Origin: Octopus vulgaris | Taxonomy: Eukaryota | Direction of reading: 5' to 3' | Assembly: GCA_951406725.2 (NCBI GenBank) | Contig: OX597819.1 | Location: 22,320,001-22,384,000 of the forward strand | Length of the DNA: 64,000 bases | Shown here: positions 20,320-52,885 of the stretch, one piece after another | How positions within the stretch are numbered: position 1 is the first letter of the stretch | Layout of the letters: the number at the start of each line of letters is the position of its first letter | Program-made: the position numbers and the translations under genes | The notes under the pieces: generated by a model | Seen by the model: the letters and a program-made list of their open reading frames with translations, nothing else | Told to the model about the DNA's origin: nothing | Database searches by the model: none

Positions 20320-20404
20320 CTATAATGGAATATCCTGTATATTGAAAATATAGCAGCAGTCATGCTCTACTTGAGAAATAGTAAACAGTGTGACATGGGC
20401 TTCT
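20320..20404 (-). CDS. Putative terminal exon of Cys-rich gene copy A
   Basis: TTTGTTTTTCAG|AGAAGCCCATGTC, homologous to TTTCAG|GGAAGCCCATATC at 34526; reads (L)EAHVTLF...IPL* if spliced in phase 2. Confidence 0.4.
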
Positions 20405-20621
20405 CTGAAAAACAAAAAGACAAGCTCATTATAAATTTTTTTAAAAAGGTATTTTAAATGTATTAATGTTCAACTCGAAATCCTCAGATTTGTATTTTCA
20501 CTTCAAAGTTTGAGCTAAATTTAGAACAGAAGAGGAAATGTTGCAAAAAGGTCAACGCAACAATGATATTGAGAAAATGTAATATATGAAGTAATTTTAA
20601 TAGCTTCACATAAATACTCAC

Positions 20622-20772
20622 AGAGGTGAACATTTTCCGAGGAATTTCTTTTCGGCTCTAATGTCTGTAATTCCTTTATAGTCGCAGACGACAGACCAGC
20701 AAGACCCGCCGGCCCTGACGACACTCCATTTTGTACTTTTAGCAACACATCCACCATCATCCCACTTACAAT
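20622..20772 (-). CDS. Cys-rich exon, gene copy A: CKWDDGGCVAKSTKWSVVRAGGSCWSVVCDYKGITDIRAEKKFLGKCSP
   Basis: Acceptor TTTTCTTATCAACAACAG, donor GTGAGT, open frame, five Cys aligned with exons at 34151 and 52738; flanking introns homologous. Confidence 0.8.
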
Positions 20773-22386
20773 CTGTTGTTGATAAGAAAACATATTAATT
20801 ATTCTATTAAAACTATTTTTATGACATAATTATGCCTACACTAGACTTTGGCAAAATATCAGCAATTTCAGGGGAACTATGAAGTCGATTACAATGACTC
20901 TAATGTTTAACTGGGACTTATTTTATCGACCTGGAAGGGATCGAATGCAAAATCTAAGAGAAATTTAAATTCTTGTCAGAAAGGTAGAAAAAATTCCGAT
21001 AAGTGAATATGCCCGACGTGCTAACAATTTTGCCCTCTCATCGTTTCAGTTGGTGATATCCAGGTATATATGTTTATTTAACGTAAATTATTATTCACTT
21101 TTTTATATTGAGTTCATATTCCTAAATCGGAATAAAGTAAAATAATCGTTTTCATACCTTGTATGCAATCAAAGTACGTGTGATCACTTTAATTTGGTAC
21201 AAGAGAATTAGCATTTTACTACATCATTTATATGGTATATTAAATTCTGATAATTCTAAACATTTATTCTTTAAATATTTAAACGTACTATTCACTTCTT
21301 AATATATTTTTATAATTTATAATTTTTATATACACTTACTTGTAGGTTTTGTTAATAATTTTTAACTTTCTATATTTTATCCCAATCCTGTCCTTCTGCA
21401 GTCCCCTTTATAGGGCTGTTCTATATTTATTCCTTCTTAACTATCATTTATCACTCACTATATCCTATCAACTCCTCTATTAATAAAATATTAGCAATTT
21501 ATTGCATAACTTATATAATATTTTACTTCTATTAATTATAACCTTCTTTTCTTAATTCTTAATCTTAACACTTTATATATTTTACGCCAGTTTCTTTCTA
21601 TTCTGTAATTCATTCGGAATTTATTTTTCCTATATTTTCCTTATTCCTCTATTTCCTGTATTTTATTTATCTTCAATTCCCCGAAGCTATATTCGTTCAA
21701 AACGATCAGGGTTTGTAACTTTCTTGGCCATCTTTGTCTTCGATTCTAAATTCTACTTTACTGCTTTAACTCTTCAGGTCACACGCACCCCATTAACATT
21801 CTTCCTTTTTTGATTTCATTTTCCCTTTTATGTCTCACCATATCACATTCTAAGTCCACCAGGATACGTCCGCTGCTAACAAGTAGTTTACGGCATTCTC
21901 CTACTATCAACATCATCCTCTCCCAACACGTATCACAAATGTCATTATTCTGATAATTTTTAGTTCTTCTAAATATCCTCTCACTATACTTATTTGTTGT
22001 CTTTGTTATCAGTTTTGTCCGTCGTTTCTTGTGTCTGCCTAACGTTATCTCTAGAGGTAAATTAAAATAATTATATACCCCTGAAATGGTATTTGGTACC
22101 GGTGAGGATGTTGTACTGACTGACCTGTCTGAGAATATTTTTTAAAAAATTTTCTCTGATATAAGCAAAACAAAAATTAAAAGAAGAAAATGATTGGAAG
22201 ACATGCAATGTAAGAGTGCATTATTGATGAAAGTCTGATGAAGTGCCACACTAATGTCTAAAAGCGCTACTACTACGTAAATCTCCATTTCGATTATCGC
22301 TTAAGCTGGAGTCGCAAGAAGAGTTGGTACAGAAACAATTGTAGCGAAGCAGTGATCACTTGTTGAAAGATTGCTTCAACTTATTT

Positions 22387-22530
22387 CTATCTATCTATCT
22401 ATCTATCTATCTATCTATCTATCTATCTATCTATCTATCTATCTATCTATCTATCTATCTATCTATCTATCTATCTATCTATCTATCTATCTATCTATCT
22501 ATCTATCTATCTATCTATCTATCTATCTAT
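22387..22530. repeat. (ATCT)n microsatellite
   Basis: Long perfect tetranucleotide run at the 5' edge of the L1/Tx1 element. Confidence 0.95.
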
Positions 22531-22534
22531 GTAT

Positions 22535-50898: not shown

Positions 50899-51273
50899 AG
50901 CCGAGGACGAGTGTATGTCCACGAGGCTACGGCAAAGAAGCCTCCAGCCTATATGCCCTAAATTTTCAAAATCCACCGCCACCGCGCGGTCTTCTCAGCA
51001 GCAAATATAAACTGCTGATTTAATTTCAAAATTAGCCCAAAAATCATTAATTAATAAATATAAAGGTAGCAAAAAAATTTTAGAAAAAATTCTCCGCTAC
51101 CAGCGGTCTAGTGAGAAAGAAGAGATAGTCAAAGACTATATAACATACATTCAACAATATAAGGAATGGCCCTGATAGGCCATTCGACTCACTAGAAAGA
51201 GCAGCCAAACTGAAACCGCTAAATAGCTGTAATTCTGAAATTGAAAGAGAAATAAAAACATTTACCCTTTTCA

Positions 51274-51368
51274 TCTCTGGACTATGCATAGTTTCGACAA
51301 ACTTTGGTAAACAAATTAATTAAATTAAATTAAATTTATTTACAACTGGCGTGTCTCGTCAGCAGAGA
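51274..51368 (-). ncRNA. Type I hammerhead ribozyme, identical second copy
   Basis: Same sequence as 50804-50898. Confidence 0.88.
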
Positions 51369-51809
51369 AGCCGAGGACGAGTATATACGACAACTCCTCG
51401 ACCCAAATAAGCAAAAAAGTATACCCAAATTACTTCCATAAATTTGATGCACAACACCTCTATTCTACGCTGTTACATTAAACTTCAGTGAATATAATAT
51501 TCAGTTTTGTCATCATGTTAGCAGCCCTCCCAAAATCAACTAAAAATTAGAAAAGAACAACAGTCAGTAACATTATCTAGCGTGGCTTAATCCGTAGTAT
51601 TTTGTTCATGCGACATTGAGGACACATTAAGGTGTTCAGTAGGTTCACTAAAAGATAAGTTTTATAAGGTGTGAAGGCGCGTGGCCTAGAGGTTACGGCA
51701 ATGGGATCACGGTGGTGAGTTCGATTATTGTCAGCTCGTTGTGTTCTTGAGCAAGACACTTTAATTCACGTTGCTGCAGTAGGTTCACTAAAAGATAACT
51801 TTTATAACC

Positions 51810-52400
51810 TTTCTACTTTAGGCAGAAGGCCTGAAATTTGTGGGGAGGGGCAAGTAGATTAGATCGACACCAGTACGCCAATGGTACTTAATTCATCTAC
51901 CCAGAAAGGATGAAAGGCAAAGTGAACCTCAGCGTAAATTGAACTCAGAACATGAAGACGGACGAAATACCGATAAGCATTGCGCCCGGCATGCTTACGA
52001 TTCTTATTTCTTATTTCTTATTTCCTTATTGTCAGAGGTGACAAACAAGGACAGATAAAGGGATTAAGTCGATTATATCGACCCCAGTGCCTAACTGGTA
52101 CTTATTTAATCAACCCCGAAAGGATGAAAGGCAAAGTGGACCTCGGAGGAATTTGAACTCAGAACATAAAGACAGACAAAATACCTATTTCTTTACTACC
52201 CACAAGAGGCTAAACACAGAGGTGACAAACAAAGACAAACAAACGGATTAAGTCGATTAGATCGACCCGAGTGCGTAACTGGTACTTATTTAATCGACCC
52301 CGAAAGGATGAAAGGCAAAGTGTACCTCGGCGGAATTTGAACTCAGAACATAGCGGCAGACAAAATACCTATTTCTTTACTACCCACAAGGCGCTAAACA
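51810..52400 (-). mobile_element. Head-to-tail array of Nin/Deu-type SINE units (three cores plus a partial unit)
   Basis: GAAAGGATGAAAGGCAAAGT core near 51904, 52118, 52302. Confidence 0.85.
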
Positions 52401-52737
52401 AGTGATATTCTGGTATATATAAATATATATACCAGAATATCACTAAACGAAACGATGAGAGGGCAAAATAGTTAGCACGCCGGGCATTTTCGCTTACCGG
52501 AAATTTTAATGGCTTTCTGACTTGAATTCAAACTTCTCCGAGTTCGATTTTGTATTTGATCACTTTCAGGTCAATAAAATAAGTACCATTTAAGCATTAG
52601 AGTCATTGTAATCGACTTACCCGTTCCCCTGAAAGTGCTAACATTTTGCCAAAGTCTTGGGCCAGTATAGGTATAATTAAGTCACCGAAATAGTTTTAAT
52701 ACAATAATCAATAAAGTGTTCGTTTTCTTATCAATAG

Positions 52738-52885
52738 ATTGTCGGTTGTCTAATGGCGCATGTTCTAAGGCAAACACAGATTATTTGTCCATCAGTGTCG
52801 GCATCTGCTGGCATCACACCTGCATATATAAGGGAGATAAAAACATTGAAACCGCTATGTCATATGCCGGATTATGTAAAAGTCT
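52738..52885 (+). CDS. Cys-rich exon, gene copy C: CRLSNGACSKANTDYLSISVGICWHHTCIYKGDKNIETAMSYAGLCKS
   Basis: TTTTCTTATCAATAG acceptor, GTGAGT donor, same length and Cys pattern as 34151-34298; neighbouring coding exons not found. Confidence 0.75.

Follow-up and report, generated by a model that had tools for sequence, protein, structure and literature searches.

The genome of Octopus vulgaris carries, on the contig that we call C6 (OX597819.1 of assembly GCA_951406725.2), a stretch of 64,000 nucleotides (C6:22320001-22384000, hereafter the window) in which three paralogous exons, copies A, B, and C, encode short cysteine-rich segments. In this study, we show that these exons belong to an Octopus family of about 30 genes and that the window holds broken copies only, its intact neighbors being the members of interest. 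Copies A, B, and C are 5′-truncated and probably non-functional copies in a tandem gene family, and the intact ten-cysteine genes bear the marks of diversifying (positive) selection around fixed cysteines and encode proteins that are predicted to fold like a pair of fibronectin type I (FnI) modules.

Exons of the window and their missing parts

The window contains three occurrences of the pattern C-x6-C-x14/15-CW-x3-C-x17-C, as against none in 100 local shuffles, and in A, B, and C alike it lies within an exon with AG/GT ends (Table 1), as an earlier note made from the sequence alone had described. We refer to these exons as module 2. As the same note proposed, a module-1 exon upstream joins the module-2 exon of copy B in frame to give nine cysteines. 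The joined pair has nine because the third conserved cysteine of module 1 is replaced by arginine in copy B, at a column which is cysteine in 13 of 14 module-1 exons; the family norm is ten cysteines, five per exon. Copy A has little in common with the other two: 14 of 48 residues agree between A and either of them, and 26 of 48 between B and C. A microsatellite lies within the copy B intron between 31453 and 34151. Four sequencing runs presumed to be RNA (X1, X2, X3, and X13, out of 21 such entries) covered at 33560-34720 a short repeat only, and none of the exons; as these runs had been picked by repeat sequence, the result carries no weight with regard to expression. The earlier note had further placed a terminal exon contributing a tenth cysteine at 34526, which did not hold up: two annotated relatives (P0003 and P0006) use a distal terminal exon, with homologs at 48502 for B and 55032 for C, and the reading of the proximal acceptor at 34526-34559 is not kept in the paralogs.

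All three copies in the window are incomplete, compared with 13 complete ten-cysteine genes. The only signal-peptide exon of the window belongs to gene g4, whose module exons lie to the left of it (C6:22309156 and 22301468), and the profile scans found no signal-peptide exon serving A, B, or C and no plus-strand signal exon between 22.12 Mb and copy B. A search of the genome DNA returned no second near-identical B signal exon (the next best match reached 73% over most of the query) and no further A-type module-1 exon apart from that of g4. Copy A consists of module 2 only, the module-1, signal, and distal terminal exons being absent; its protein is 92% identical to that of an intact gene, A′, and the 5.8 kb lost from A holds the A′ terminal exon (C6:22411748-22411978). 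Copy C has an open terminal exon but not its 5′ half, and no module-1 or signal exon was found upstream of it in the profile scan. Because no signal-peptide exon serves them, A, B, and C cannot make a secreted product as assembled. The probable secretion proposed in the earlier note is supported by the signal peptides of intact family members, but not for the three copies on which the proposal was based.

Size, layout, and range of the family

The genome scan used profiles of the exons and covered about 1.0 Mb of C6 around all matches, plus the window; the counts given here are lower bounds, as 123.315-123.60 Mb lay outside the scan. The ten-cysteine type comprises at least 16 module-2 exons on C6 (13 at 22.15-22.78 Mb and 3 at 123.3-123.95 Mb), and 14 exons each for module 1 and for the signal peptide; in 13 genes, signal, module-1, and module-2 exons stand in order on the same strand. 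Five cysteines are present in 16 of 16 module-2 exons and in 13 of 14 module-1 exons. A more distant type is represented on C6 by 13 module-2 and 5 module-1 exons (22.60-22.73, 115.03, and 123.62-123.82 Mb; loci L077-L089, L114-L133, and L151); the full-length relatives annotated for this type contain 12 cysteines each. Profile comparison of module 2 between the ten- and twelve-cysteine types gave a modest match (E 7e-4, probability 27%), and that of module 1 with module 2 a weak one (E 0.07). Weak genome matches on C2 and C1 (L032, L034, and L110) were unconvincing on inspection and were excluded, and no shared exon of the 5′ untranslated region could be placed.

Among 1.84 billion representative proteins searched with a two-sequence profile, 11 passed E 0.001, and 10 of these are uncharacterized proteins of Octopus bimaculoides or O. 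sinensis. We set aside the eleventh (P0008, a low-complexity HYR-repeat protein of Chlamydomonas, E 5e-11) as an artefact of its repeats, so that the family appears lineage-specific, as had been suspected from the window. The Octopus gene models, made independently, have identical exon joins, identical phases, and N-terminal hydrophobic stretches; this agreement in joins and phases supports splicing at the family level. The exons are less anonymous than the earlier note assumed in calling them unannotated, given that eight Octopus records of the ten-cysteine type, two cluster members counted in, have NCBI LOC names, all of them "uncharacterized": LOC128248175, LOC128248056/57/60, LOC106872088, and LOC106872057 in O. 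bimaculoides, and LOC115212787 and LOC118763783 in O. sinensis. P0001 is the counterpart of intact A′, and no annotated relative corresponds to copies B or C. The twelve-cysteine relatives are LOC128248178, LOC128248081, LOC106869794, and LOC118763690; P0014-P0018 are full-length relatives of this type and likewise uncharacterized Octopus proteins.

A transposable-element origin of the exons, which the earlier note had named among the findings that would speak against its proposal, was rejected, the copies being confined to the C6 clusters and carrying signal exons. Departures from the common layout were seen as well. In O. bimaculoides LOC106872057 (P0009/P0013) the signal peptide is joined straight to module 2, giving a one-module form, and P0004, P0006, and P0013 have C-terminal tails with clustered basic residues, which resemble convertase sites. 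At C6:22558222-22559323 a terminal exon stands no more than 0.9 kb behind a signal exon and the module exons are absent, the remains of an emptied gene.

Selection, turnover, and gene conversion

Copies B and C are 92-96% identical in their introns and 81% identical in the exon. The exon differences number 15, 11, and 8 at codon positions 1, 2, and 3, and the nonsynonymous distance (dN) of 0.355 stands against a synonymous distance (dS) of 0.081 and a flanking-intron distance of 0.083 (Fisher p 0.004). Among the module-2 pairs, which are not independent of one another, dN/dS exceeds 1 in 58 of 78, and dN exceeds the flanking-intron distance, taken from partial intron alignments, in 78 of 78. 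Site models were fitted to 13 intact genes, with A, B, and C excluded, using codon-model code of our own. The likelihood-ratio statistic for M2a versus M1a was 19.1 for module 1 and 35.7 for module 2, where 12 neutral simulations per exon did not exceed 6.3 and 6.0, respectively, and the models place 42-45% of sites at dN/dS 2.5-3.0 while the average over all sites is 1.0. These sequence comparisons argue that the ten-cysteine family is under diversifying selection around its fixed cysteines, as the earlier note had expected of toxin, defence, or recognition proteins.

The family also shows signs of exchange between its members. Gene g4 (C6:22301322-22322990) is a mosaic in which the signal coding part is identical to that of g9 and module 2 is close to that of g9, but in which the module-1 exon resembles that of A′ at 93%; the search for a distal terminal exon of g4 found none. 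In B′, the intact counterpart of B, and g2 (C6:22148527 and 22188406), the module exons are strongly different and the terminal-exon region is 93% identical, which suggests conversion. The signal exons can be aligned at 70-78% identity while the module exons diverge. Net charge runs from −7 to +12 across 14 proteins, 12 of which are net positive, a spread that fits different partners for different members.

Predicted fold and domain membership

The earlier note had seen a loose likeness to von Willebrand factor C (VWC) or FnI modules and had asked for structure prediction and a fold search. An AlphaFold model of P0002, built from a two-row alignment, has a mean predicted confidence (pLDDT) of 80 and consists of a signal helix and two all-beta modules; the predicted models show about 45 residues forming a hairpin and a three-stranded antiparallel sheet, two such units standing in tandem. 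FnI modules occupied all of the top 8 rows in Foldseek, with a best E of 1.4e-3 and none below 1e-3. With VIA, against 48,161 chains, the 8-9FnI pair 3ejh came first (Z 6.7, root-mean-square deviation (rmsd) 5.2 over 86 residues), followed by other FnI chains, VWF C4 (Z 5.2), and chicken MSMB3 (Z 4.5). Single modules superpose on FnI at rmsd 1.2-2.5 over 39-45 residues. Module B of the window, modeled alone (pLDDT 81.5), again ranked FnI first (Z 5.3, rmsd 1.5 over 39), and ESM Atlas models of both family types match MIG-18-like Fn1_2 proteins at TM-scores of 0.58 and 0.57 (range 0.54-0.58 among predicted models). All of these scores are modest and come from predicted models; they point to intact proteins that are predicted to fold like a pair of FnI modules.

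Membership in the described families was not supported by profiles or by cysteine spacing. The FnI module has four cysteines, including a C-x-C pair on strand D; in the ten-cysteine type there is no C-x-C and each module has five invariant cysteines, which suggests one bond between the modules. PF00039 (FnI) matched none of the 8 full-length proteins and none of the 4 window exons. VWC domains combine the motifs C-x2-C-x-C and CC-x2-C in one domain; both are absent, PF00093 (VWC) matched 1 of 8 proteins at E 0.044 only, and the VWF C4 structural match covers one module only. The FnI part of the proposed likeness is supported at the level of predicted fold. Membership in the beta-microseminoproteins (MSMB) was likewise rejected on cysteine spacing and on the PF05825 profile. 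The core of MSMB is C-x2-C-x-C-x6-CC, and the family has five cysteines per exon with no adjacent CC and no C-x-C; PF05825 matched 0 of 8 proteins and in the genome search only places elsewhere (E 0.7-0.8). For the fold of the MSMB N-terminal domain, 6rwc scored Z 4.5 and 3.9, lower than the fibronectin rows. PF23003 (MIG-18-like Fn1_2) found no match in the 8 proteins or in the C6 clusters. The genome searches with PF23003, which gave a single weak match, and with PF05825 picked up weakly L095 and L153 (C14:33.09-33.13 Mb) and L152 (C27:24.44 Mb), which are presumably pacifastin-like protease-inhibitor exons. Sequence searches of the PDB gave no useful match, and an Atlas feature search remained under the chance bar (best 0.75-0.77), tick CirpT4 at 0.75 being a lead only.

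The breakpoint between copies A and B

Between copies A and B lies a young long interspersed nuclear element (LINE) which is cut directly after the YADD motif, in the middle of its reverse transcriptase (RT). The LINE side is matched at 98% by 39 other places, and the cut is taken to be young because other copies 98% identical continue past YADD. Copy A repeats part of A′ in inverted orientation at 97% identity, with homology ending at 22534 in intron 2, and copy B repeats B′, likewise inverted, at 91-97% identity, with homology beginning at 26718 in intron 1. From the sequence arrangement, A and B appear to have been cut by a recent rearrangement through this LINE, which would mark the A-B breakpoint. 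Positions 1-22534 of the window are a 93-98% inverted duplicate of C6:22404766-22437991, which lies some 20-55 kb beyond its right end.

Other repeats were noted around the copies. The second retrotransposon, in intron 1 of B, has copies at C6:22.318-22.321 and 22.432-22.435 Mb. At 36529-36957 there are short tandem repeats of 9 to 50 bases with an internal inverted repeat, and at 39777-42349 two long plus-strand open reading frames (ORFs) of 370 and 496 aa, which resemble a Penelope-type retroelement with an RT followed by a GIY-YIG-like end.

Table 1 Features of the window (positions counted from its first nucleotide)
Feature	Position	Strand	Remarks
Signal-peptide exon of gene g4	2839-2917	−	nhmmer E 2e-51; AG/GT ends; sole signal exon in window
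Junction with 5.8 kb missing from copy A	19760-19768		A/A′ alignment breaks off at C6:22407549 and resumes at 22413367
Proximal acceptor behind copy A	20330-20404	−	Conserved; putative use only; terminal exon in the earlier note
Copy A module-2 exon	20622-20772	−	AG/GT ends; phases 1-2; 5 Cys
L1/Tx1-type LINE, young	22535-26717	+	ORF1 with CCHC knuckle, endonuclease, RT; adjoins (TCTA)n repeat
B′ intron 1 homology resumes	26718-27412	+	97%; few bases of microhomology at joint
Broken non-LTR retrotransposon in B intron 1	27723-30827	−	RT-like ORF pieces
Copy B module-1 exon	31319-31453	+	135 nt; phase 1-1; 4 Cys
Copy B module-2 exon	34151-34298	+	AG/GT ends; phase 1-2; 5 Cys; predicted FnI-like module
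Proximal acceptor behind copy B	34526-34559	+	Conserved in paralogs; terminal exon with "tenth Cys" in the earlier note
Distal terminal exon of B	48502-48690	+	AATAAA; contributes one residue, then stop
Copy C block	51382-53012	+	3′ part of intron 2 and module-2 exon
Copy C module-2 exon	52738-52885	+	AG/GT ends; phases 1-2; 5 Cys
Distal terminal exon of C	55032-55240	+	AATAAA; open for 17 residues

Discussion

We favor, with a probability of roughly 0.7, the explanation that A, B, and C are broken copies and that the intact members of the family are secreted, hypervariable proteins resembling an FnI pair which bind partner proteins. FnI pairs bind by adding a strand of the partner to the edge of a sheet, and the Foldseek matches include complexes of FnI pairs with collagen and with bacterial adhesin peptides. 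By analogy, the intact Octopus proteins would be secreted and keep their disulfide frame while their exposed strands vary to grip a co-evolving protein partner, a strand of which would probably be added to the edge of the three-stranded sheet. The family would turn over by duplication, conversion, and deletion, the window copies being remnants of this birth and death.

Several observations weigh against this explanation. The pairwise dN/dS of module 1 is nearer 1; the site models were run with our own code on fixed trees; and gene conversion, which is evident in the family, can inflate such tests, the simulations having been made with no conversion. With regard to the fold, a Z below 8 can stem from a small beta arrangement of a common kind, and no Pfam match did better than E 0.04; the term binder is drawn from fold analogy and selection. 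As for the broken copies, decay is not advanced, since the reading frames and splice sites of all three exons in the window are intact and the tail of C is open too, and B or C could still be expressed by way of an unrelated upstream exon or a LINE promoter.

It is possible that the intact proteins act as a reproductive signal or as seminal or egg-coat proteins, and a part in surface or blood defence seems to us just as possible; venom or saliva is a less likely setting, on a par with some other role. A more specific idea, which we put forward as speculative, is that some 25 secreted finger-pair recognition proteins might form a code for mating or the egg coat, specific to the species or the individual. 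Such a code would be the octopods' counterpart to the beta-MSP pheromone of squid, and it would have evolved independently and been diversified by positive selection and by whole module-exon swaps between genes. As a weak prior only, passages of one study report that genes of octopod-ancestor age are most expressed in male reproductive tissue (PMC7656900).

If the intact members were venom or salivary peptides, the clusters would be an array of the conotoxin type, in which a conserved signal exon and fixed cysteines accompany a hypervariable mature part. The alignable signal exons beside module exons that diverge under selection, the small, disulfide-rich, mostly cationic proteins, and the birth and death of genes in a tandem array would all suit such peptides. 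However, the searches made gave no sequence or fold match to any described toxin family, and serine proteases, in the passages covered, dominate the expression that is specific to the posterior salivary gland of non-tetrodotoxin octopods (PMC7656900), so that we regard venom as unlikely.

It has also to be considered whether B and C form, or formed until recently, one transcription unit, in which one signal and module-1 exon served alternative module-2 exons and tails. The homology of copy C begins within intron 2, a terminal exon of its own follows, the C block lies only 2.7 kb from the tail of B, and the mostly nonsynonymous differences between C and B imply that C was under selection in some expressed form; moreover, the joining of the signal exon to module 2 in P0009/P0013 of O. 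bimaculoides indicates that exon skipping is tolerated. On the other hand, there is no C-like block behind intact B′ in the 37 kb scanned, copy B is now without a signal exon, and loss of the 5′ half of C on arrival of the B block would give the same layout, which makes a common unit doubtful.

The truncations might in principle be errors of assembly, haplotypes or inverted duplicates having been mis-joined at a high-copy LINE so that A and B are in reality complete, or allelic to A′ and B′. The left arm of the window indeed repeats C6:22.405-22.433 Mb in inverted orientation at 93-98% identity, the B block does the same for B′ at 91-97%, the joint sits in a repeat with many 98% copies, and in the DNA runs X14 and X15 position 26727 is covered only by a B′-type contig. 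Yet the joint is base-precise, with microhomology and in the middle of the LINE, and A and C carry additional, separate deletions. In run X16 one contig of 88 nt spans 26691-26778 with 2 differences from the window, a hint only, as it has 27 bases left of the joint and so falls short of the 31-base rule applied. Because the X16 contig spans the joint and X14 and X15 show the B′ type, the rearrangement may be polymorphic, and we consider mis-assembly improbable. Equally improbable are structural or matrix linkers of egg coat, mucus, or sucker cuticle, similar to the collagen-binding modules of fibronectin or to MIG-18 and changing fast under weak constraint, for although the best structural matches are matrix modules and dN/dS averages about 1.0 across all sites, the class at 2.5-3.0 (42-45% of codons) fits significantly better than neutrality and the exons outpace their adjacent introns, as between B and C.

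The family is real, positively selected as far as its sequences tell, and apparently undescribed, on a finger-like scaffold. In the main texts of the open-access literature, searched under 14 gene identifiers and by topic, we found no account of it. In the parts covered of the supplements to PMC7693380, PMC9712504, PMC11202624, PMC8740685, PMC12607849, and PMC8976471, whose files may use other identifiers, gene identifiers and short motifs gave 0 matches, and the passages covered of PMC9068888, on cephalopod gene clusters, make no mention of it. Lineage-restricted, fast-evolving secreted families usually signal a molecular contest with mates, microbes, or prey. Such a contest could be followed here in about 13 intact ten-cysteine genes and about 13 loci of the twelve-cysteine type, with identifiers in two annotated octopus genomes, and the family suggests that a finger-like module can serve in an invertebrate as a free-standing, variable binding scaffold.

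With respect to known systems, the predicted hairpin and three-stranded sheet of about 45 residues, in tandem, resemble the FnI pairs of fibronectin, tPA, and factor XII (3ejh, 2cg6, 8os5, and 4bdx). Unlike these, the Octopus modules have five cysteines each, form a small stand-alone protein rather than part of a mosaic, and are only 7-17% identical to FnI. The nematode MIG-18-like Fn1_2 proteins (PF23003) are the top structural neighbors in the ESM Atlas; they differ in having 382-477 residues and in a profile that finds no match in the C6 clusters. The beta-microseminoproteins (MSMB/PSP94, PF05825) are also small, secreted, two-domain proteins with ten cysteines. Passages of one report describe that MSMB exons evolve faster than the introns outside the signal peptide and cysteines, that six cysteines form bonds inside the domain at the N terminus, and that Loligo beta-MSP is the squid egg-capsule signal (PMC3268785). 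The Octopus proteins share the signal peptide and the ten cysteines in about 95 residues (ten in 13 of 14 module pairs) as well as exons outpacing introns. When module 1 is superposed on chicken MSMB3, the match covers 37 residues of the N-terminal part at Z 4.5 and rmsd 1.6. In contrast, the cysteine spacing of the Octopus proteins is different and their second half is a second finger-like module. By this analogy of layout and tempo rather than of descent, the beta-microseminoproteins may serve as the closest working analog of the Octopus family.

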